Positions 21,271 through 31,031 of a stretch of 64,000 nt of DNA are shown here, one piece after another (position 1 is the stretch's first letter; each line of letters begins with the position of its first letter). A model generated the notes under the pieces. It was not told the DNA's origin. It worked only from the letters and a program-made list of their open reading frames with translations, and ran no database searches. The position numbers and the translations under genes are program-made. Source of the stretch: Parcubacteria group bacterium GW2011_GWA2_40_143 (GTDB lineage Bacteria; Patescibacteriota; Minisyncoccia; UBA9983); contig LBYH01000001.1 in NCBI GenBank assembly GCA_000996035.1, forward strand, positions 21,676-85,675, given 5' to 3'.

Positions 21271-23955
21271 TTAAAACTGTGATAAATTCTTTCTTCTCCG
21301 AAAGAAGAGTTTGCGCAATTCTTCGGCAACGATTATTGACGCGGCTACCGGAATGATTAAAAGCCATTCTGAAAATTCCAACGGCACGGTGCGAAGAATT
21401 TTCTGCATGACCGGCATGTATATTGCGATTACCTGAAGTATAATAACCGCAAAAGTCGCGCCAACCAAATATTTATTTGAAAACCAATCCATCTTAAATA
21501 TTGATTTATTTTCCGAGCGGCAATTCCACACATTGAACCATTGAAAAATCGCGAGTGTTGTGAGTGATATTGTCCACGCTTTGGCGATATCAGTTTCAAA
21601 GTATCGGCTGAATAAGAAAAGTGTTCCTATCATCATAGGCAACGCCATAATAATCATTCTTTGAATTATCAATGAATCAATAATATATTTTTTAGGATGT
21701 TCAAATTTTCCGGACAAAAGTCCTTCTTCTTTCGGTTCCATAGCTAAGGCCATAACAAGAAACCCGTCAGTTACGAAATTAAGCCAAATAATTTGTGCCG
21801 CGAGAATCGGCAACGGATACCCCAAAAACAAAGCGACAGAAATCACCAGCACTTCTCCGGCGCTTGTTGAGAAAAGATACAAGATAACCTTTTTTATCGT
21901 CTTATATATGCTTCGGCCTTCCTCAATTGCCGAAATAATGCTCCCAAAATTATCATCAAGCAATACAATATCCGAAGCTTCTTTCGCAACCTCCGTGCCG
22001 ATTTTACCCATGGAAACTCCGAGATCAGCGGCCACAAGCGACGGCGCGTCGTTAACTCCATCTCCTGTCATGGCGATAATTTCACCTCTCTTTTTGTAAG
22101 CGTTGATAATCTGCATTTTGTGCTCAGGCGTCACTCTGGCGAAAACCGTTGTGTTTGCCAGTTTATCGGCAAGCTCAGCGTCATACATCTTTTCAATTTC
22201 ATCTCCGGTTAGCACCGTATCTCCTTCTTGGTATATGCCCGCCTCCTTGGCAATGGCGCGGGCGGTTATCTTATGGTCGCCGGTTATCATTACCACCCTG
22301 ATTCCCGCCTCTTTCGCTCGCTGCATTGCTCCTTTAACTTCCGGCCGGAGAGTATCTTGCATGCCGAAAAATCCGACAAAAGACAGCGAATGAATTGATT
22401 CCTTTTTTAATTGTTTTGGCGCTTCATCACAAGCCGCGACCGCGATAACGCGAAGCCCTTCCTCCGACATGCCGGTAAATATTTTCTCAAGTTCTTCTTT
22501 CTCATCCGTTTCGAGAGGATGATTCTTTCCTCCGCGCCTAATATCAACGCAAAGCGAAAGTATCTTCTCCGGCGCGCCGGTAACGATTAAGAGATGGCCT
22601 TTTTCCGTCTGATGCAGAGTGGCGCGATACTTCATCTTATAATCAAAAGGAATTTCTGAAATAAGAGGCGATTCTCTCAAGAGATCTTCTTTGCGAAAGC
22701 CCGCTTTCTCGGCAAACACAAGCATGGCGGCTTCAGTGGGATCTCCGGCTATGCGCCACTCCTTTGCTTCTTCAACATAAAAGAGACGAGCGCCGGCAAC
22801 AAGCGAAGTGGTTTTTCCCAAATACAACAATTCATCATGCTTTGCCACACTGACAAGATTCTTATCAAACTTGATTTCCCCCTTAGGTTCATATCCGATA
22901 CCGCCAACTTCAAATAATTTGCCGCCCGCCCACGCTTTGCGTATGACAAGTTCGTTTTTAGTAATGGTTCCCGTCTTGTCCACCGCAATCACTCGCGCTT
23001 GTCCGAGGGCTTCCACGGCTTGAAGCCTCTTTACAAGCGCGTTCCGCTTTGACATGCGCCAAACGCCAGTCGCAAGTACAAGTGTCATAACAATTGGCAG
23101 CCCTTCGGGAATAATTGAGACGGAAAGCGAAACAACGGTCGTGAACATTTCTTTGGCGGAATGACCGAAAAGTATGCCGGCAGTGAAAAGAATCGTACCA
23201 ATGACAACGACGGCGACAATAATTGCCCGCGAGAGATGGCGGATGTTTGCCTTGAGCGGAGTTTCCGTATCAATGGCGGAAATTTGTTTAGCGATACCGC
23301 CAATCACAGTGCCAAGCCCCGTTGCCACCACGATTGCCCGGCCATTACCGGAAACAATATGCGTACCTTTCCAAACCATATTCTTTTGCTCCGCTGTAGG
23401 AAGATTATCTTTTTCAAGAACATTAGTATTTTTATGTATCGGCTCGGATTCTCCGGTCAAAGAAGCCTCGTCTATTTTTAAACTTTGAGAGAAAATAACC
23501 CGAGCATCGGCTGGAATTCGTTCTCCCTCCTGAAGAATGAGAATGTCGCCGGGAACCACCTCCATATCCGGAATGATAAATTCTTTTCCATCACGAAGGA
23601 CCGTCGCGCTTGTTGCCACGAATTTTTTGAGAGCGAGGAGAGTATTTTGGGCTTTACCTTCTTGAATAACACCGATAATGGCGTTAAACAAAAGTACGGT
23701 GAGAATAATCAAGCCGTCCATGGTCTCGCCCATAGCAAAAACAACCGCGCTGGCGACAAGAAGGATATAAATAAGCGGACTCTGGAACTGACTTAAAAAG
23801 AGTCTTCGCTTGGATCGCGGCTTTTCTTCCAGAAGACTATTCCCGCCGTATTGCTTAAGACGCTCATCTGCCGCTTCAAGCGAGAGCCCCCAATCCGAAC
23901 TCTCAAGCTTCTCAAATATTTTTTCTAATGTGAACGAGTACCATGGTCGCGCCAT
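21271..23955 (-). CDS. P2-type cation-transporting P-type ATPase (Ca2+/Mg2+-ATPase-like)
   Basis: 894 aa. DKTGTITKNE, MITGDHKITA, MTGDGVNDAPSL, 10 predicted transmembrane helices. Confidence 0.9.
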   Translation of the reverse strand: MARPWYSFTLEKIFEKLESSDWGLSLEAADERLKQYGGNSLLEEKPRSKRRLFLSQFQSPLIYILLVASAVVFAMGETMDGLIILTVLLFNAIIGVIQEGKAQNTLLALKKFVATSATVLRDGKEFIIPDMEVVPGDILILQEGERIPADARVIFSQSLKIDEASLTGESEPIHKNTNVLEKDNLPTAEQKNMVWKGTHIVSGNGRAIVVATGLGTVIGGIAKQISAIDTETPLKANIRHLSRAIIVAVVVIGTILFTAGILFGHSAKEMFTTVVSLSVSIIPEGLPIVMTLVLATGVWRMSKRNALVKRLQAVEALGQARVIAVDKTGTITKNELVIRKAWAGGKLFEVGGIGYEPKGEIKFDKNLVSVAKHDELLYLGKTTSLVAGARLFYVEEAKEWRIAGDPTEAAMLVFAEKAGFRKEDLLRESPLISEIPFDYKMKYRATLHQTEKGHLLIVTGAPEKILSLCVDIRRGGKNHPLETDEKEELEKIFTGMSEEGLRVIAVAACDEAPKQLKKESIHSLSFVGFFGMQDTLRPEVKGAMQRAKEAGIRVVMITGDHKITARAIAKEAGIYQEGDTVLTGDEIEKMYDAELADKLANTTVFARVTPEHKMQIINAYKKRGEIIAMTGDGVNDAPSLVAADLGVSMGKIGTEVAKEASDIVLLDDNFGSIISAIEEGRSIYKTIKKVILYLFSTSAGEVLVISVALFLGYPLPILAAQIIWLNFVTDGFLVMALAMEPKEEGLLSGKFEHPKKYIIDSLIIQRMIIMALPMMIGTLFLFSRYFETDIAKAWTISLTTLAIFQWFNVWNCRSENKSIFKMDWFSNKYLVGATFAVIILQVIAIYMPVMQKILRTVPLEFSEWLLIIPVAASIIVAEELRKLFFRRRKNLSQF

Positions 23956-23975
23956 AATATTTATTATAACAAGTT

Positions 23976-24998
23976 TTAATAGTTTTTTAGAACATCCAAA
24001 ATATTTTCAGAAAGAGAAGCAAATTCTTTTTTTGATTGCTCTAAATTCTCTTTAGTCCCTTTAACATTCTCAAAGCCATCAATTGTTGGATCAAGATTGA
24101 AAATAGCCTTATTTTTAATCTGAGCAAGTGGTGGCAACTGACCATAATCTTTAATAAGCGCGAGTGGACTGCTCCAAGACTTTTCTACAAGACCATTGCG
24201 ACAATGTTTTTCAGATAAATACTTCTTAATAAATGTTGGTATTTTCTCAATCCATTCTTCATTGCTCTTGATCGGTTTTTTAGAATATTGATTATATGAA
24301 TTTACAATATAGCCAATAAATAACCCTTCTCCATCTAAGACCTTATTATGTGGTATACCCTTATCTCTCGCCAAAACTTTTGCTGTTTTCTTCCAATTAT
24401 CTTTCCATGCTTCAAAAGTATTTCCTAGATTTTCAATTCCCTGCACGGAAAAAGCATCAGGCATAAGCGGAGTTATAAAATAATCCGAACCAAGAAAAAT
24501 TACCCTATTTAAAAGATTTAGATTTGGAGAAGTATCCACTATAAAAAGATCAATTTCTTCCGCTAAACCTTTTTCAGTTAAAAATCGATCGATAGCGCTA
24601 GTACTAAAGAAGCCTCGTTCTGATCCTTGAGCAGCTTCTCCATACGCTGAAATAAGAGAATTTTCATACTCAGAAAGCTTTAAACTTCCGGGCAATATAA
24701 ACAAATTACCAGAAGAGCCGATTTTTTCAAATTGCACGCTTGTGTCAATATCAGCCCCACCTCTCACTACGCCTTGCAAAACTGTATATATTGTTTTCTG
24801 GCTATCTGAAAAAAGATTCTCTTCAAAAGTATTCCCAAGAGAAATACGAGAAAGATTGCATTGAGGGTCTAAGTCAACCAATACTGTTTTATAGCCCATT
24901 TCCGCAAATTTAACCGCTGTATTATAGGCAAGAGTGGTCTTCCCAACTCCCCCCTTATTATTAAAATAAACCAGTTTTTTCGTACGAGTAAACTTCAT
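23976..24998 (-). CDS. ParA/Soj-family (deviant Walker A) ATPase with a C-terminal extension
   Basis: 340 aa. KGGVGKTTLAYN deviant Walker A, DLDPQCNLS. Lies at the edge of the AT-rich island. Confidence 0.7.
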   Translation of the reverse strand: MKFTRTKKLVYFNNKGGVGKTTLAYNTAVKFAEMGYKTVLVDLDPQCNLSRISLGNTFEENLFSDSQKTIYTVLQGVVRGGADIDTSVQFEKIGSSGNLFILPGSLKLSEYENSLISAYGEAAQGSERGFFSTSAIDRFLTEKGLAEEIDLFIVDTSPNLNLLNRVIFLGSDYFITPLMPDAFSVQGIENLGNTFEAWKDNWKKTAKVLARDKGIPHNKVLDGEGLFIGYIVNSYNQYSKKPIKSNEEWIEKIPTFIKKYLSEKHCRNGLVEKSWSSPLALIKDYGQLPPLAQIKNKAIFNLDPTIDGFENVKGTKENLEQSKKEFASLSENILDVLKNY

Positions 24999-25045
24999 GT
25001 TTATATAATATCAAATTTTATAAAAACAAGCACGCCAACCCTTTA

Positions 25046-25258
25046 TCACGGCTCGCCTTTAAAAGCCTTGTTCAAAATTGATTTCTTCATCTCCTCCAAA
25101 ATCTCCTTCGGCTCACGCAAGGAAATTTCACTCTTCAAAGTCGCGCCTTTTCCCGCCACTTCACAACTGCCACAAGCGCTGGAAGCGAATTCCGAAATGT
25201 TGGCTGGCGTCCTTGAGTAAGAACCGCGGTCGGTCAAGCCCCGTAAGGACATTTTCAA
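25046..25258 (-). CDS. Hypothetical small protein (70 aa)
   Basis: ORF only. It overlaps an equally long plus-strand ORF, so strand and coding status are uncertain. Confidence 0.2.
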   Translation of the reverse strand: MKMSLRGLTDRGSYSRTPANISEFASSACGSCEVAGKGATLKSEISLREPKEILEEMKKSILNKAFKGEP

Positions 25259-25468
25259 TACTTTTATCTTATCATTTCGACGGTCTTTGAGCAGTAGGTT
25301 TTTTATACAAATCAGGGTTTTGCTTTCTGTCCATTTTCAGCAACAAACTAAAGAAACCTACGGCTCTATCTAGCTCTTCTTTAGTCCAATTCTTCGGATT
25401 TCCTTTATCTTTATTTTTCATAAAAAGTGACAGTGAATCGCTATGTAAAGTTACACAATGATGTAACT

Positions 25469-26581
25469 CTATTTTGACAGTAATTTGCTATCAATAAAAC
25501 TTTTCAGAGAATAATTTACTATCCTTTCAAACCAACGGGTACGCGGCAACTTCTCTTTCTCAGATATTTTCTTTCTATCCATACTCATTCCCACAGAAGA
25601 ATCAATGTCCCATTTCTTCACATCATCTCCTCTCATATCCATACTCAAAAACATTGGCTTACCTGTATGTAAGTATGCAGACCGTGCATCATAGATGCGT
25701 TTAGCATATTTAGACACGTCACCCTTTGATATATAGCAATGAGAAGCCTGCTTAGGAACCTCGCCAGAAAATCCATCTGCATACTGTTCGATAAAATCTA
25801 CAAACCTTTTACAGATCTTTCTATTTTGAAGCCACCTCTCAATCTGCCCCCACTCATCTGGAATAAATAACTCCTTGTCCTTAAGTTCTATTAGCTTTTT
25901 CTCTAAATTATCAGACTCCACTTTAGATATATCTAAAAGTGCCTCAATTGAGGAAACCATTTTTATGAAAAACAACTCATGATCAACTCCTATTTCTTTA
26001 ATAGCCACAGAATACCAATGAACCGCTCTAATGAGGTTTTGGTGGTGCTTTTCATCAACCGTCTTTGTGGAATCAAGAAAGTTTAAAAGACCATTATCTT
26101 TACACCAATTCCTATCGTGATTTGAGAACATTTCAAGATTCAAACAAGTTAAATCATCGTTAATTTTTTTATACAGAAATTTCTTTTCCAATCGCATCCT
26201 TATACTCTGAGGAGTCATAGCTCCAGTAATTGTTGCTTTGAGATAAAAACGTGCCTGAAAATAGAAAGAGAATAAAGCAATAATTTCTCCAACTAATCCC
26301 TCTTTAAAGTAATACCCGTCTTTTGAGTAGTTACTCTCATCGTAATCGAAAACTTTCTCAACGTGCTTAATCTTTAAGATATAAGTGTAGAGATTGTTAT
26401 CGTCAGCCTCTTGATACAACGAGCATTCAAGCATTCCATCGCCATAGGTAAAAACGCCAGGTATTCTCACTTCTGAACATATTTCATACTCAGTGAAATA
26501 AATAGGGGTTTCTCCAGCTTGCTCTAATTCTTCAAGCTTGAGTACCCACTGCATTCTATTGTCGATTTTTTGTCTTTTCAT
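25469..26581 (-). CDS. Hypothetical 370-aa protein adjacent to the restriction-modification genes. Possible HEPN-like (Rx4H) nuclease motif.
   Basis: AT-rich. No confident family. The C-terminal region carries AKRIYDARSAYLHTG, which fits the HEPN Rx4-6H pattern seen in AbiD/AbiF-type proteins. This is a weak, motif-only indication. Confidence 0.5.
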   Translation of the reverse strand: MKRQKIDNRMQWVLKLEELEQAGETPIYFTEYEICSEVRIPGVFTYGDGMLECSLYQEADDNNLYTYILKIKHVEKVFDYDESNYSKDGYYFKEGLVGEIIALFSFYFQARFYLKATITGAMTPQSIRMRLEKKFLYKKINDDLTCLNLEMFSNHDRNWCKDNGLLNFLDSTKTVDEKHHQNLIRAVHWYSVAIKEIGVDHELFFIKMVSSIEALLDISKVESDNLEKKLIELKDKELFIPDEWGQIERWLQNRKICKRFVDFIEQYADGFSGEVPKQASHCYISKGDVSKYAKRIYDARSAYLHTGKPMFLSMDMRGDDVKKWDIDSSVGMSMDRKKISEKEKLPRTRWFERIVNYSLKSFIDSKLLSK

Positions 26582-26618
26582 ATGCTTGTATATTAACTAG
26601 TAATTATACAAGGTCAAC

Positions 26619-27290
26619 GTGCAACTTTTGGGGTCCGGGCCAACAAGAAGTGGCAACAAAGGATTAACCTTGAGCAACATATATCTTATATTACAAAACC
26701 CGTTTTATTATGGAGTTTTTGAGTACCCGAGAAAAAGCGGGAACTTTTACACAGGAAAGCACGAGCCAATTATTTCTAAAGAACTCTTTGATCAAGTCCA
26801 AGGGCAGGTAAAGAGCCAAGTATTGAGAGTGCAAGAACCAAAAGAATTCGCTTTCACTAAAATGATGACTTGCGGACTCTGCGGGTCTGGAATCTGTGCT
26901 GATGAAAAGTTTAAGAAATTGAAAGATGGATCTGTAAACAGACATATTTACTACGGATGTACAAAGTCCAAAGACAAGTACTGTAAATGTGGCTACATAA
27001 ATGAGGTAGATCTGTTAAAGCAGTTTGAAAAATTAATAGATCGAATCGAGATAAATGGGATTGGTATAAAAAAAAATCAAAAAAGATGTTGAACGATTTA
27101 AGAAATTTCAGCAAATGCTTTTGGGTAAGAGAGAGAAAATAGTGATCGGTGATATTGATATTCGTAATTATGCAAAATACATACTAAAAGAAGGAGAGGA
27201 TATTGAAAGAAGAGAACTTTTAGGATGTTTAAATGGCCAGATAAGACTTAAAAACAAAGAGATTACGATAGTTCAATAAACTTAGACGCT
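26619..27290 (+). pseudogene. Remnant of a large serine recombinase (C-terminal recombinase and zinc-ribbon region only, then a frameshifted tail)
   Basis: The 26619-27092 ORF has no resolvase catalytic domain and no upstream coding in frame. It carries the recombinase zinc beta-ribbon pattern (YYGCTKSKDKYCKCGY, CGLCGSGICAD). The continuation (…LLGCLNGQIRLKNKEITIVQ) is in another frame up to 27290. Confidence 0.55.
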
Positions 27291-27314
27291 TACCCACTGA
27301 AACAAAAGAATTCA

Positions 27315-28169
27315 TCACACACCTTTTTGAAAGATAAAAAGGTGTTCGTGCATTATCAACAAAAAATTTGATTCTTTTGATTTTGTGACCCAAAATCCAG
27401 TTGCTTTGCAATTAAACTGTCTTTTTATTATATCTTCTTTTAAAACAAAACCTGAATCTAAAAACTTCTGCATTACCTTAAAAGCAAGTGGTTGATACAT
27501 TTTATTTCTTCGAGTATCTCCCATTAAAATTGCACAGTATTTTCCTTTCTTTAAAACTCGAAACAACTCTTTGGCAACTTTTTCTATTTCATCAACAAAA
27601 GCGTCTATGTCGTGTATTCCCGAAAGATCTTCCTTAATCTTACCCTCACTGTATTTTATTATGTCTGCATATGGAGGATGAGTTAGAACAAAATCAATTT
27701 CATTGTCTTTAATAAAACTCATATCTCTCGCATCGCATTTCGCGATCCGTTGTTTCGCTTTATTATCAACTTCAAATTCAAGAGATTTTTTCGTTCTCTC
27801 TAACGCTTCATCATTAACATCAATACAAGTAATATGACGATTTAAAATTTTTGCTTCTATTGCGGTAGTACCTCCGCCAATCATGCAGTCGAGCAAGTGG
27901 TCTTTCTCTTTTGAGTAACGCAAAATAAGATTGCGAGCTACTTCTGGCGACCAGTTTCCACACCAGTCAGATTTATGTGCCCGTCCACTCTTTCTCGCAT
28001 TCAGCACAGCGGTTATTGCCAGTGTGCTCAAACATGTCGGTAAAACCGTTTGGCTGATATATGTTTTCCTTTTTGCTCCAGAAAAACTCATCATCGATAA
28101 CTGTCTCGACATATTTACGCTCAGCTCCACAGTGTTGACATGCATGTTTTGGGTACTTTCTTGTTTCAT
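27315..28169 (-). CDS. N4/N6 DNA methyltransferase (PF01555-like) with atypical motif order: motif I region (HKSDW…LLDCMIGGGTT) precedes the HPPY catalytic motif
   Basis: 284 aa. HKSDWCGNWSPEVARNLILRYSKEKDHLLDCMIGGGTTAIEAKIL matches the C-terminal HPTQKP…DPFxGSGTT block of beta-class N4/N6 methyltransferases. IDFVLTHPPYADII…LKKGKYCAILMGD matches their N-terminal (D/S)PPY block. The two blocks are in swapped order here. Confidence 0.7.
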   Translation of the reverse strand: MKQESTQNMHVNTVELSVNMSRQLSMMSFSGAKRKTYISQTVLPTCLSTLAITAVLNARKSGRAHKSDWCGNWSPEVARNLILRYSKEKDHLLDCMIGGGTTAIEAKILNRHITCIDVNDEALERTKKSLEFEVDNKAKQRIAKCDARDMSFIKDNEIDFVLTHPPYADIIKYSEGKIKEDLSGIHDIDAFVDEIEKVAKELFRVLKKGKYCAILMGDTRRNKMYQPLAFKVMQKFLDSGFVLKEDIIKRQFNCKATGFWVTKSKESNFLLIMHEHLFIFQKGV

Positions 28170-28202
28170 TTTCCATAATTAGATCCTTGATCGAATCGAT
28201 TT

Positions 28203-28970
28203 CTATGTCAAGCGATATTTTCCAGCTTCAACGAATTCAAGATAACCTTTATCTCTCAAAAATTGTAATTGCTGTCTTATTTTCGGCTTTATATTTTTGT
28301 TTTCAGGATGAATGACAGATAAGTCTTGCTCAAAAGCATACATATCTTCCAGTGTGAAATCTTTTTTATTGAGAGAGTCAATGCAATTCATAATGTCTAA
28401 AATCCAACCCTTAGCGTCAGGTTTTTTAACTTGTTTTAGAAACACTGTTTTCTGCCATTTTTCCAATACATCTTTTTTATCAAGCTCTTTTCCATTTTCA
28501 ATATAAAAAATTTGCCCTGCTTTTGGTATTTTTGAAAACAGAATATTTGAACCAACCCAACCAGCTCGTCTGGCACTTTCTGCGAGAGGTTTTCGTTCTT
28601 CGATAATTTCAGATACAAAAAAGTGTTTTGGGATAACAAAAAAATCATTCACATTCCACATCTCGACCATATAACCCATAAAAAAGAAGTTTGGTTTTTG
28701 AAACGAATTGATTCTCTTTATCATCTGAGAGTAAGCACCCGCAGAAACTTTTTTGCCAATTTTGCCTTTTTTAGATTTTAACTCAAAATCTTCGGAACAT
28801 TTTTTGCAATAAAAATCTGCAACAGGTTTGTTGTTGTCGTAATCGTAAATACTATCACCACAACTTGGACAATATATTTCATTAAGAACCCAAGCCTCAC
28901 TTAGAACACGGGCTTTTTGAGAATAACTTGTGTAAGTGTCAGCTAGTTTAGTATCGAAAGTTAAGTTCAT
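28203..28970 (-). CDS. DpnI-family (m6A-dependent, type IIM) restriction endonuclease
   Basis: 255 aa. N-terminal SQKARVLSE, a Cys4 cluster (YCPSCG … YCKKCS), and a PD-(D/E)xK triad with D-x10-E-x-K spacing (ADFYCKKCSEDFELKSKK) matching DpnI D53/E64/K66. The C-terminal RQQLQFLRDKGYLEF winged-helix region is DpnI-like. Length matches DpnI (254 aa). Confidence 0.75.
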   Translation of the reverse strand: MNLTFDTKLADTYTSYSQKARVLSEAWVLNEIYCPSCGDSIYDYDNNKPVADFYCKKCSEDFELKSKKGKIGKKVSAGAYSQMIKRINSFQKPNFFFMGYMVEMWNVNDFFVIPKHFFVSEIIEERKPLAESARRAGWVGSNILFSKIPKAGQIFYIENGKELDKKDVLEKWQKTVFLKQVKKPDAKGWILDIMNCIDSLNKKDFTLEDMYAFEQDLSVIHPENKNIKPKIRQQLQFLRDKGYLEFVEAGKYRLT

Positions 28971-28973
28971 AAA

Positions 28974-29717
28974 TTAAGCAAAAGTGTACGAAGTAAACGA
29001 TGCAGTTTTACTTACTGGATAATATGGTGGATCAAAATAAACAAAATCTCCCTTTTTTGCTTTTTTAAGTACTTCTTTATAATCTTGTTTTTTTATTTCA
29101 ACATTTTTTAATGCTTTTGATGCTTTTCTAAGATTATTTTCATCGCAAATAAGAGGATTTGTGTATTTACCAAATGGAACATTAAATCCGCCTCTGCTAT
29201 TCACGCGATACATACCATTGAAACAAGTTCTATTCAGATAGATAAAGCGAGAAGCAGTATTTAAGTCAGAGAGTTTTTCTGGGTTTTGAACTCGTATTTT
29301 TAGAAAGTAGTCTTTATCTAGTTTGTGTTTTTTAAGTGATTTTATTAGATTTTCAACATCATTTTTTATCACATTGTAAGTGATAACAAGTTCGTTGTTT
29401 AAATCGGAAAGATATGCTGTCTCTGGAAGTAAATCAAAGAACACTGCACCTCCGCCAACAAAAGGCTCGAAATATTTTCCTTTTTTAATATCAAATTTTT
29501 CAGGTGGGTATAGATTCATTAAACGAAATTGTGCGAGAAGCTGTCTTTTCCCACCAACCCATTTAACAAAAGGTTTTGGCTTTTCATCAATAATTCTTCC
29601 AGAGTCTTCTAATAGATTTGTTTTGTCGGCAAGTGAGAATACTCTCTGTGCGTAAATTGCATTAATATTGAAGGTGTTCTGAATCTCCTTTATAGCTTTT
29701 TTTGTGGTCATTAGCAT
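28974..29717 (-). CDS. Dam-family N6-adenine DNA methyltransferase (alpha class), apparently C-terminally truncated
   Basis: 247 aa. KWVGGKRQL, EPFVGGGAVFF (motif I), NRTCFNGMYRVN, DPPYYPVSKTASFTSYTFA*. E. coli Dam continues about 90 aa beyond the equivalent DPPYAPLSATANFTAY. Here the ORF stops 3 nt before the dpnI-like start. Confidence 0.75.
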   Translation of the reverse strand: MLMTTKKAIKEIQNTFNINAIYAQRVFSLADKTNLLEDSGRIIDEKPKPFVKWVGGKRQLLAQFRLMNLYPPEKFDIKKGKYFEPFVGGGAVFFDLLPETAYLSDLNNELVITYNVIKNDVENLIKSLKKHKLDKDYFLKIRVQNPEKLSDLNTASRFIYLNRTCFNGMYRVNSRGGFNVPFGKYTNPLICDENNLRKASKALKNVEIKKQDYKEVLKKAKKGDFVYFDPPYYPVSKTASFTSYTFA

Positions 29718-29769
29718 AACTTCATTTTACAATAATCTTGAATTAATATAAAGGTAATAGTCGAACACA

Positions 29770-29796
29770 AAGCCACCCGATCGGGTGGCTTTGTGT
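29770..29796. terminator. Perfect 11-bp hairpin CAAAGCCACCC-GATC-GGGTGGCTTTG. Possible terminator between tRNA-Gln and the island.
   Basis: Inverted repeat read directly from the sequence. No strong T-tract, so a terminator role is tentative. Confidence 0.3.
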
Positions 29797-29874
29797 TCTG
29801 AATACTGCTCTCAGCAGGTATGCAATTTAAGTATAGATCTTCCTGATTAGCTCTATCTTTGAGCTAGCTCAAGT

Positions 29875-29948
29875 TGGCTGCCAGACTAGGATTCGAACCT
29901 AGATAACAGGTTTCAGAGACCTGTGTCCTACCATTAGACGATCTGGCA
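29875..29948 (-). tRNA. tRNA-Gln (anticodon CTG), CCA encoded
   Basis: The reverse complement folds as a cloverleaf. Acceptor stem TGCCAGA/TCTGGCA (7 bp), D-arm GTCT-AATGGTA-GGAC, anticodon stem CAGGT/ACCTG with loop CTCTGAA, T-arm CTAGG-TTCGAAT-CCTAG, discriminator G, then CCA. Confidence 0.85.
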
Positions 29949-30110
29949 ATATGTTCTTGACAATGTTTTTACATTCCCAATCTACCAGAAAAATGGCCAA
30001 AAATCCAATTTTTGTGATATGGTTTAAATATAATGTGGCGGTCTCTCCGGAAATAAAAGCTTGTTTTGACGAGTTTATAGAACTCTTGAAAGACCAGTCG
30101 TATGGATAGG

Positions 30111-31031
30111 CTAAACCCTCAGATACCGCCTTATGGCGATGAAGCTGGAAACAGAGCAGATCAACACGCCGATTATCAAAAGAATTACAAAGATTTGTCC
30201 GAAGTTTTGGATATAATAATTATACACATTCATGCCGCTTAAAAAGTTTTCCGTGAGAGCGCCAAGCCACATGGTAACGGGAAAGAACATAATCATGGTA
30301 ATAATGGCCGAAACCACGCCGTACATAACACCCTCCACTATAAACGGCCCGCTGGCAAATTTATTGCTAGCTCCCACCAAGCGCATTACTTCTATCTCTT
30401 CGCGAGAGGAATAGATAGTAAGCCTGATAGTATTGAAAGTAACCAATATGGCGACACCGGCAAGCACCAAGCTAATAATCACCCCGAATCTCTGCGCCGA
30501 ATCTGTGAGCACGGAAAGACGTTCTATGACTCTTTTATTTTCAAAATAGTTTATCTTGTCTATATAATCACTCGCGCCGGAATTCATGTGACTATTCAAA
30601 AAATTGGCGATTGATTCATATTGAGAAATTTCTTTAGCTTTTATGTTTAAAGAAGCGCCAAGAGGATTCTCACCTAATTCATCCAAAGATTGCATAAGGA
30701 GAGCGTTATTTTTGTTTCTCTCTTTAAAACTTTCCAGGGCTTGTTCTCTGTCAACATACGCCACATCCTTCGTTTCCGACAATTTAGAAACAGCTGTTTT
30801 AATGGTCATTATGTCCTGCTCTTGAGCCTCCGGCTTGAAATATACGGTTATGTCCACTTTGTCTTTAAGCTGGGCAACGAGCGCGTCAAGACCACCTTTA
30901 AAAAACACCAGCGAGCCGATAGTAAAAAGGGTTATCACCACCACCAGAATGGAAGCGAGCGACACCCAGCCATTTCGCCAAAAACTCATAAAACCCGCCC
31001 TTATGACTCTTTTTAATTTTGTGAAAAACAT
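30111..31031 (-). CDS. ftsX: Cell-division ABC transporter permease FtsX
   Basis: 306 aa. N-terminal transmembrane helix, periplasmic domain, C-terminal FtsX 3-transmembrane bundle. Immediately downstream of ftsE. Confidence 0.85.
   Translation of the reverse strand: MFFTKLKRVIRAGFMSFWRNGWVSLASILVVVITLFTIGSLVFFKGGLDALVAQLKDKVDITVYFKPEAQEQDIMTIKTAVSKLSETKDVAYVDREQALESFKERNKNNALLMQSLDELGENPLGASLNIKAKEISQYESIANFLNSHMNSGASDYIDKINYFENKRVIERLSVLTDSAQRFGVIISLVLAGVAILVTFNTIRLTIYSSREEIEVMRLVGASNKFASGPFIVEGVMYGVVSAIITMIMFFPVTMWLGALTENFLSGMNVYNYYIQNFGQIFVILLIIGVLICSVSSFIAIRRYLRV

Follow-up and report, generated by a model that had tools for sequence, protein, structure and literature searches.

In pneumococcus, one locus carries either a GATC system composed of two methylases and an endonuclease or DpnI with a small partner gene, and the two states are complementary at the population level (PMC3812788). 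In Neisseria, drg (NmeBII), coding for a DpnI-family endonuclease that depends on G(m6A)TC (m6A, N6-methyladenine), is inserted at dam and truncates this gene in several strains; the insert has a GC content below the genomic value, and the dam+ and drg+ states exclude each other (PMC516771, PMC4269198). Here we describe a comparable locus in a 64-kb stretch of contig LBYH01000001.1 (hereafter the window), whose source population belongs to the Patescibacteria (Parcubacteria/Paceibacterota). On either side of a dpnI gene, the genes of two DNA methylases are cut short, and we consider it likely that a swap of restriction cassettes left this locus as its scar: dpnI and a small zinc-ribbon gene (Zn67) would have replaced the middle of a GATC cassette of the form M1-R-M2 (first methylase, restriction gene, second methylase), clipping both methylases.

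Swaps of this type are already known from pneumococcus and Neisseria, and the Patescibacteria locus is a new example, not a new kind. As in pneumococcus, the full-length relatives of M1 are closest to DpnM, a related locus carries a DpnII endonuclease (PF04556), and the methyl-dependent enzyme is 48% identical to DpnI. Unlike in pneumococcus, the breakpoints lie inside both methylase genes, which are left as truncated open reading frames (ORFs); the gene order is M1-R-M2 instead of dpnM-dpnA-dpnB, M2 is a permuted PF01555 enzyme whereas its pneumococcal counterpart is the beta-class DpnA, and the partner gene encodes a 67-amino-acid zinc ribbon whereas the pneumococcal partner is DpnD (PF14207). 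Pneumococcal cassettes are reportedly exchanged whole, by way of homology in flanking housekeeping genes, with a DpnI cassette said to be free of methylase remnants (work attributed to Lacks, 1986). The neisserial locus, which is said to be tied to a 2001 study by Cantalupo, shares with the window a methyl-dependent enzyme at the dam locus, a truncated dam and a low-GC insert. The neisserial dam is solitary, so no restriction gene or second methylase was displaced there, unlike in the window, and the host is a proteobacterial pathogen and not an uncultured Patescibacterium. The locus extends beyond two pathogens a complementary restriction logic, by which some strains methylate GATC and cut it when unmethylated while their neighbours cut it when methylated. 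The setting is one of uncultured, ultra-small Patescibacteria, in which the swap has recurred, leaving datable scars within methylase genes. Our literature search surfaced no paper on DpnI in Patescibacteria.

A full-length DpnI homologue between two truncated methylase genes

The features of the locus are collected in the table; positions are coordinates of the window throughout, L-numbers designate compared loci and P-numbers compared proteins. All coordinates and features of the preliminary description were real when ORFs, tRNA and composition were rechecked.

Table. Features of the dpnI locus and its surroundings in the 64-kb window.
Feature	Position	Strand	Description
dpnI	28203..28970	-	255 amino acids; Pfam, PADLOC, alignment to R.DpnI (4ESJ)
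dam'	28974..29717	-	247 amino acids; DpnM/Dam-type (D12, alpha-class) N6-adenine methyltransferase, truncated; Pfam/NCBIfam, alignment
Left junction	28968..28984	-	...TAC AC/T TTT GCT TAA TTT ATG (slash, end of full-length-dam homology at 28983/4)
Intergenic element	28182..28211	-	TTGACA at 28206..28211, overlapping the last dpnI codons; GATCAAGGATC at 28182..28192; upstream of Zn67
Zn67	27973..28176	-	67-amino-acid CxxC...CxxC zinc-ribbon gene; stop codon at the right junction
M2'	27315..27977	-	last 220 codons (3' part) of M2, the cassette's second Type II methyltransferase; PF01555 blocks permuted, GGGTT before HPPY
Replacing segment	27978..28982	-	about 1 kb with dpnI and Zn67; unrelated to the restriction-modification relatives
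tRNA-Gln (CUG)	29875..29948	-	ARAGORN; 157 nucleotides upstream of dam'
Hairpin	29763..29798	-	36 nucleotides, perfect, aaagccacccgatcgggtggcttt; between tRNA and dam'; self-inverted blastn match
Serine-recombinase remnant	26619..27279	+	two ORFs of 157 and 54 amino acids; Recombinase and Zn_ribbon_recom domains only
AT-rich tract	23750..29870		35.1% GC against 43.7% and 42.5% in the flanks

By its sequence, the 255-amino-acid protein is a full-length DpnI homologue. It covers positions 1-182 of 183 of PF06044, the N-terminal catalytic domain of DpnI (E=1.9e-73), positions 1-69 of 70 of the winged helix DpnI_C (PF17726, E=4e-33), which aligns to the winged-helix domain of 4ESJ, and positions 1-254 of 256 of the PADLOC model mREase_II for Type II methyl-directed restriction enzymes (E=7e-104). 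Alignment with the crystallised R.DpnI (4ESJ) extends over residues 1-253 with 48% identity (E=1.4e-80), and both CXXC pairs, E25 and the D-x10-E-x-K motif are identical in the two proteins; the catalytic and zinc residues of R.DpnI are named in PMC3424567. The protein thus resembles R.DpnI (Type IIM; 4ESJ/4KYW) in length, in its two domains, in the PD-(D/E)XK core, in the two CXXC pairs and in the winged helix, and differs from it in that identity is only 48% and that activity and specificity are predicted here. The identification as DpnI made in the preliminary description was confirmed, as both Pfam domains of the DpnI/Dam-replacing families were matched end to end. We also compared dpnI with the other copies and found a dN/dS of 0.03-0.07, showing that the gene is under purifying selection. 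Considering this together with the conservation of all catalytic and zinc ligands, its product most likely works as a G(m6A)TC-dependent endonuclease; for the C-terminal winged helix, what is established is the presence of the domain, and its reading of G(m6A)TC is a prediction.

We considered whether the 255-amino-acid protein could be instead a methylation-blocked or differently specific PD-(D/E)XK enzyme with a flanking methylase as its partner, the locus being an ordinary restriction-modification system. In its favor, both flanking methylase ORFs are uninterrupted, and M2 is intact beside DpnI homologues in some loci. We regard this explanation as very improbable, however, since both DpnI domains are complete, resemblance to a biochemically characterised enzyme extends to every ligand, the characterised family members DpnI and NmeBII/Drg all need G(m6A)TC (PMC516771, PMC4269198, PMC3424567), and the neighbouring dam' gene is left without one third of its catalytic domain.

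Results for dam' clearly showed a loss at the 3' end. Its 247-amino-acid product covers only positions 1-198 of 253 of PF02086 and 2-196 of 267 of TIGR00571; it keeps motif I for S-adenosylmethionine (AdoMet) binding (FxGxG, as EPFVGGGAVF) and the catalytic DPPY, and ends 12 residues after DPPY without motifs V-VIII. A protein search returned thousands of relatives, nearly all of 318-320 amino acids, the closest of them 97% identical, and alignment to P0002, P0006, P0021 and E. coli Dam indicated that Dam' is 73 residues shorter than a 97%-identical homologue of 320 amino acids. Among solved structures, the full-length form most resembles DpnM, the methylase of the pneumococcal DpnII system (2DPM, E=8e-70); the value for E. 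coli Dam is only about 6e-36. The N-terminal 245 residues align with both DpnM (M1.DpnII) and E. coli Dam, including motif I, the target-recognition region and DPPY; unlike these two enzymes, Dam' has nothing past the twelfth residue after DPPY, and it starts with an extension of about 45 residues that is typical of the Patescibacteria clade. The missing C-terminus was absent elsewhere in the window. As the catalytic domain is incomplete after DPPY, we file dam' as a truncated remnant and not as a functional D12-class member, in line with the 3' truncation of dam proposed earlier, which alignment to full-length Dam now sets at the last 73 codons.

The loss is not confined to dam, as had first been thought, since M2 is truncated as well, at its 5' end. 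The annotated ORF (27315..28169 on the minus strand, 284 amino acids) is a composite, in which the opening 64 codons read through Zn67 in the +1 frame. Homology to the M2 family begins at HKSDW and continues to the end, with 86-89% identity to intact homologues of 244-249 amino acids. M2' is therefore devoid of its native start and of the conserved N-terminal VWAFPRRGNWAT segment (VW(A/S)FPRRGxWATH), a motif present in 115 of 120 M2 homologues, and has the Zn67 gene in its place. The swapped order of the PF01555 blocks, which had been taken as atypical, is genuine, as alignment to 2ZIE comes in two permuted pieces, and it is normal for this family: the PADLOC model MTase_II (PDLC03376) is matched at full length and thousands of homologues of 244-257 amino acids have the same native order. 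The actual anomaly is the lost N-terminus. In the public record, the 247-amino-acid "modification methylase" and the 284-amino-acid "DNA methylase" are thus truncated or chimeric ORFs, while the 67-amino-acid gene is usually missed.

In 13 other loci, Zn67 is the gene that immediately follows dpnI (42-93% identity); 11 of these copies are intact, and those of L054 and L084 have premature stops. Conservation is limited to the frame of Zn67, the overlapping one having diverged; this pattern and the recurrence after dpnI indicate that Zn67 is a real gene that came in with dpnI. No family was assigned to it in Pfam, PHROG or PADLOC. We also examined whether the 284-amino-acid ORF could be a fusion of zinc ribbon and methylase or the product of a programmed frameshift, and rejected this as the principal interpretation: Zn67 stands alone in most loci, and the frame that overlaps it evolves freely, with 2-7 stops in copies outside the clade of the window (L027 excepted).

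Breakpoints and the ancestral cassette

To find the former state of the locus, we looked at relatives with full-length Dam. Those whose Dam is 86-97% identical carry, at the equivalent place, Dam (318-320 amino acids), a restriction enzyme (DpnII or DUF6996/6997) and M2 (244-249 amino acids), in this order. In L008, a tRNA-Gln and an intact serine recombinase are followed by Dam, a DpnII-family endonuclease (PF04556) and a 247-amino-acid PF01555 M2; in L009 and L010, a helix-turn-helix regulator precedes Dam, a DUF6996/6997 protein (PADLOC REase_II) and M2; L007 has tRNA-Gln, a 97%-identical Dam and DUF6996/6997. From the gene contexts of these relatives, the ancestral module is, on sequence grounds, a DpnII-like M1-R-M2 restriction-modification cassette for GATC.

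Alignment of the window with these loci allowed placing both breakpoints. Against L007, blastn of 29950..28984 gave 94.5% identity starting at the 5' end of the tRNA, and DNA homology to the relatives ends at 28983/4, ten bases before the dam' stop. It resumes at 27979/27977 inside M2 (L008, L009, L010) and runs to the end of M2 at 27324. The replacing segment sits where the relatives have the 3' end of dam, the restriction gene and the 5' end of M2, so that it displaced 73 codons at the end of M1, the R gene in full and some 26 codons at the start of M2; no DpnII or DUF6996/6997 remnant was detected elsewhere in the window. The same locus, with homologous flanks, is in the restriction-modification state in L007-L010 and in the DpnI state in the window, L011, L013, L014, L015 and L097. 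Comparison with relatives therefore supports the cassette replacement suggested in the preliminary description, with an intact Dam-R-M2 on one side and breaks at the dam'/dpnI junction and inside M2 on the other. As for what was exchanged, a DpnI gene did take the place of a GATC module, while the incoming part consists of two genes, dpnI and Zn67, and not of dpnI alone.

As the data derive from metagenome assemblies, the truncation could in principle be an artefact of assembly or binning, for example if two variants of the cassette had been joined into one chimeric contig, and one contig (L004) departs from the window inside ftsX at 30193. This is almost certainly not the explanation: at least 5 assemblies produced independently, by at least 5 projects from different samples, agree at every base over 3.7 kb of the locus, and the dam'/dpnI junction recurs in lineages that are 14-24% diverged at the protein level.

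Dam and M2 were 81-97% and 83-95% identical, respectively, over the 120 top matches, which span many Patescibacteria classes; one M2 match was labelled Nitrosarchaeum. Such uniformity across classes suggests that the cassette has spread horizontally often and very recently.

Recurrence of methylase loss across DpnI loci

We asked whether dpnI is accompanied by methylase remnants elsewhere. A scan for the DpnI protein in one genome per GTDB species returned 197 relatives, the best 80 of which, mostly Patescibacteria, were used to define loci; their flanks were examined by tblastn for dam and M2 remnants. An exact-match scan of Joint Genome Institute (JGI) metagenome contigs for the junction added 3 further junction-bearing loci (2 lineages) besides 2 chance matches, too few for a pseudogene census. 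Results revealed at least 5 different truncation points of dam beside dpnI in Patescibacteria. The remnant ends at residue 12, fused to a Bro-N protein, in L031; at residue 35 in L026; at residue 93 in L053; at residue 245, with the junction of the window, in seven lineages (L011/12, L013, L014, L015, and decayed in L052; the JGI loci L096 and L097/98 have the window junction too); and at about residue 278 in L066. Remnants of the 3' part of M2, of many lengths, lie downstream of dpnI in 11 loci (L026, L055-L059, L063, L066, L071, L076, L077). The Zn67/HKSDW junction of the window is also present in L018, where M2' is a 5'-truncated ORF, in L029 and L030, where the rest of M2' is deleted, and in L039, where it is frameshifted. 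Most DpnI loci retain neither methylase. This series of remnants, together with the loci devoid of both genes, thus indicates that acquisition of dpnI has been repeatedly coupled to the inactivation and eventual loss of the GATC methylases, judging from gene structure.

Probable spread by recombination and a possible surrounding island

The left junction of the window is common to L011, L013, L014, L015 and L097, the right junction to L018, L029, L030 and L039, and no other locus has both; the modules therefore recombine with each other. Signs of exchange were also found within the genes. Compared with L007, dam' differs at 2.8% of sites in its first 497 nucleotides and at 8.9% in its last 235 (maximum chi-squared permutation p=0.018, in a test with four full-length DNA alleles). 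In M2', a stretch of 180 nucleotides is 97-100% identical to L009 and only 80-97% to L018. Given these mosaics, homologous recombination is the most likely way for the swap to spread, the conserved methylase genes providing the homology arms. The locus offers a natural system for following how recombination turns over restriction specificities in organisms believed to rely on the uptake of DNA.

A different origin has to be considered, in which dam', dpnI, Zn67 and M2' arrived ready-made on a serine-recombinase island beside tRNA-Gln, at a site that never had an active GATC system. The surroundings give some reason for this. The AT-rich tract holds the cassette, the recombinase remnant, a 370-amino-acid ORF and a ParA-like ATPase gene; the low GC content noted in the preliminary description is real and runs to about 23750, past the range given there. 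The decayed large serine recombinase also proved correct, its fragments (26619..27092 and 27115..27279) corresponding to residues 214-355 and 372-422 of the intact 423-amino-acid enzyme of L008, with the Resolvase catalytic domain (PF00239) missing. In L008 this intact enzyme adjoins the Dam-DpnII-M2 cassette and a tRNA-Gln. The adjacency of tRNA-Gln to the cassette, proposed before and confirmed by ARAGORN, recurs in L007 (5724-5797, UUG), L008 (7986-8057) and L097 (1140-1213), while the genes farther upstream differ and homology to L007 starts exactly at the 5' end of the tRNA; the tRNA-Gln may be carried along with the cassette, or it may indicate a hot spot of integration common to these lineages. 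Both junction types also predate the lineage, being common to loci with dS (synonymous divergence) of 0.7-1.

On the other hand, a search for a repeat of the tRNA-Gln 3' end that would mark the distal boundary (blastn-short with the tRNA and downstream sequence) gave none above chance in the window, where we saw no other att-like duplication either, and no empty site was found. Moreover, the mosaicism of dam' and M2' points to homologous exchange with full-length alleles and not to a simple site-specific insertion. We therefore consider a ready-made arrival rather unlikely, although it is not mutually exclusive with a swap in situ. The idea of an integrated element put forward in the preliminary description remains plausible, considering the recurrent tRNA-Gln linkage and the intact recombinase of L008, and is not proven as no repeat was seen. 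The AT-rich tract may be a decayed island, with the ParA-like ATPase (340 amino acids, PHROG 164, E=1e-40) and the 370-amino-acid ORF (both within 23976..26581) as possible further cargo; the 370-amino-acid ORF had no Pfam, PHROG or PADLOC match and one sub-threshold NCBIfam match (E=0.0027).

Expected function of the locus

Under the cassette swap, we propose the following scenario. The ancestral state would be a DpnII-like three-gene GATC cassette beside tRNA-Gln, as seen in close relatives, and the two-gene module of dpnI and Zn67 would have replaced the 3' end of M1, the R gene and the 5' end of M2. With both methylases disabled, the chromosome would be unmethylated at GATC and DpnI would be harmless to its host, while it would cut incoming G(m6A)TC DNA, for example of phages or DNA raised in neighbouring Patescibacteria with Dam-R-M2. 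The window contains 153 GATC sites that a methyl-dependent enzyme could cleave if they were methylated, and no other dam, M2 or DpnII sequence was found in it. Therefore, metagenomic methylomes are predicted to show unmethylated GATC in the population of the window and methylated GATC in the Dam-R-M2 relatives.

The dam' stop, a spacer of 3 nucleotides and the dpnI ATG share one frame (28968..28976, TAA TTT ATG), and the sequence across the junction, TTTGCTTAATTTATGAACTTA, is the same in L011, L013, L014, L015, L096, L097 and L098. These 21 nucleotides are invariant among lineages in which the neighbouring wobble positions are saturated. The spacing of stop, NTT and ATG suggests a conserved arrangement for termination and reinitiation. 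Considering the in-frame TAA TTT ATG, the invariant junction and the lack of a spacer with a ribosome-binding site, dpnI would probably use the former dam promoter for transcription and depend on coupling to dam' for translation. In L018 and L023 a Bro-N-domain gene precedes dpnI with the same spacing (GCATAA(C/T)TTATG).

Apparent constraint on the remnants

Several observations weigh against the cassette swap, or at least against the idea that both remnants are dead. The first concerns the compatibility of methylases with DpnI. M2 is intact beside dpnI in four lineages (L011, L013, L015/L096, L031), so the two need not exclude each other, and M2 may not make double-stranded G(m6A)TC. In three of these loci (L013:1855-2850, L015:5731-6774, L031:1988-2983), the intact M2 (331-347 amino acids) has an N-terminal domain resembling a minimal nucleotidyltransferase (GS..G..SDLD, with weak matches to PF01909, PF18765 and PF22600). 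In Bacteroidota (L089-L091), a nearly complete Dam-type gene, with its last 12 or so residues replaced, lies beside a DpnI homologue. Within the window, the in-frame ATG at 28169 could give a 284-amino-acid M2' product, and M2' is an uninterrupted ORF of 220 codons with a dN/dS of about 0.03. Finally, an active GATC methylase may reside outside the 64 kb.

The good state of dam' is the most puzzling of these points. The ORF is intact (245-247 amino acids) in 6 of 7 junction-bearing lineages, and the copy of the window is undamaged: it deviates at 0 of the 144 columns in which conservation among full-length homologues reaches 97% or more. The Dam' copies have 0-4 such deviations, and full-length proteins 0.84 on average, a test too weak for a call. 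The last 40 codons of dam' near the shared junction differ almost only synonymously, with omega (dN/dS) of 0.015-0.14. A long-dead pseudogene should not look like this, unless conversion from full-length alleles refreshes dam'. Either the Dam' protein or its translation is still selected, or conversion from the abundant full-length alleles renews the gene, and the apparent constraint on a truncated Dam is a loose end of our analysis. We also tried dN/dS as a test of deadness for both dam' and M2'; values were low (0.03-0.15) and uninformative, as recombination with functional alleles is demonstrable.

Selection could act if Dam' were a non-catalytic partner of DpnI, such as a regulator binding GATC or AdoMet, or an ORF whose translation is needed for dpnI expression. 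In favor of such a role, seven lineages share the junction and all but one of them keep dam' intact, omega remains low up to the junction where synonymous sites are saturated, the invariant 21 nucleotides are consistent with termination-reinitiation coupling, and the window copy deviates at none of the conserved columns. Several findings speak against it and make it unlikely in our opinion. Motifs V-VIII of the Rossmann core are gone, making a stable methyltransferase fold doubtful (from the alignment with DpnM and E. coli Dam and general knowledge of alpha-class methyltransferases); L052 keeps the junction with a decayed dam'; and other lineages retain 12, 35 or 93 codons of dam, or none. In addition, the 5' half of the window copy is 99% identical to a full-length allele. 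Since recombination with functional alleles supplies fresh sequence, the low omega of dam' may be inherited instead of current.

A further candidate for regulation is the element that follows dpnI. Across loci it has the form TTGAC(A/T), overlapping or abutting the dpnI stop, then about 17 nucleotides and (T/C)GATCAANGATCA, often as a perfect palindrome (GATCAATGATC), and it stands just before the start of whichever gene follows dpnI. Of 77 related loci, 26 have an exact GATC-N3-GATC in the 90 nucleotides that follow the dpnI stop, where chance would give 0.004 per such stretch. The element is within the first 60 or so nucleotides in L018, L022, L023, L025, L027-L030, L033, L035, L036, L038-L040, L042, L045, L046, L048, L049, L054, L057, L060, L065, L068, L073 and L076. 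Its role could be that of an operator or of a promoter that responds to methylation. A scan of the locus for sigma-70 promoters and terminators gave fewer promoter-like sites than shuffled sequences and was uninformative. Combining a Dam' selected as partner or regulator of DpnI with TTGACW-N17-GATCAANGATC as a methylation-sensitive switch for the downstream gene, one may imagine a sensor-effector module for foreign Dam activity that would be widespread in Patescibacteria; we see this as a speculative and quite unlikely extension of the swap.

Other loci and neighboring features

In the Bacteroidota locus L089 (4040-6885, from a metagenome-assembled genome of Paludibacter), and similarly in L090 and L091 (the latter from an isolate of Pelobium manganitolerans), a Dam-type gene is followed, in this order, by a DpnI homologue (57% identical), a DpnD-like gene (PF14207) and a DpnA-like PF01555 methylase. 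The Dam-type gene of L089 covers the full Pfam profile and has its last 12 or so residues exchanged for an unrelated tail; the DpnA-like methylase is 5'-truncated, without the first 38 profile positions and without DPPY. This arrangement is an independent, parallel scar with M1 almost complete.

The gene that follows dpnI in L016-L094 is variable and belongs to few families: the 67-amino-acid zinc ribbon, a 'MNTKLQLLEKEI...' protein of 60-70 amino acids, a 'M(D/K)ISR..LKYL..FYFPF' protein of 88-170 amino acids, a 'MKLKEFIKKL' protein of 52 amino acids, the nucleotidyltransferase-like domain, alone or fused to M2, and a DpnD/PcfM-like protein (PF14207) in Bacteroidota and L064. The partner ORFs of L011 (69 amino acids) and L040 (89 amino acids) matched no Pfam or PHROGs family at the curated threshold.

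GATC has an observed-to-expected ratio of 0.66 in the window, a depletion that is not diagnostic. Other palindromes of 4 bp are more depleted (TCGA 0.31, GGCC 0.53, CTAG 0.55, ACGT 0.56), which hints at past restriction pressures. The perfect hairpin between tRNA-Gln and dam' is probably the terminator of the tRNA, and other DpnI loci adjoin tRNA-Ser (L034) or tRNA-Glu (L018).

The contig L004 (GCA_000995735.1) and the window have the same sequence as far as 30193, a position within the 3' end of ftsX; beyond this point (L004:1-581) its sequence is unrelated and contains a fragment of fructose-bisphosphate aldolase, so that either the contig is chimeric or strains differ by a rearrangement at the edge of the island. 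Downstream of the intact Dam-DpnII-M2 of L008 (12887-19235), we observed a run of genes resembling a defence island, which includes AIPR, DUF6119, a trypsin-like protease, a PDDEXK_4 protein, and a reverse transcriptase with bAvd, similar to a diversity-generating retroelement.

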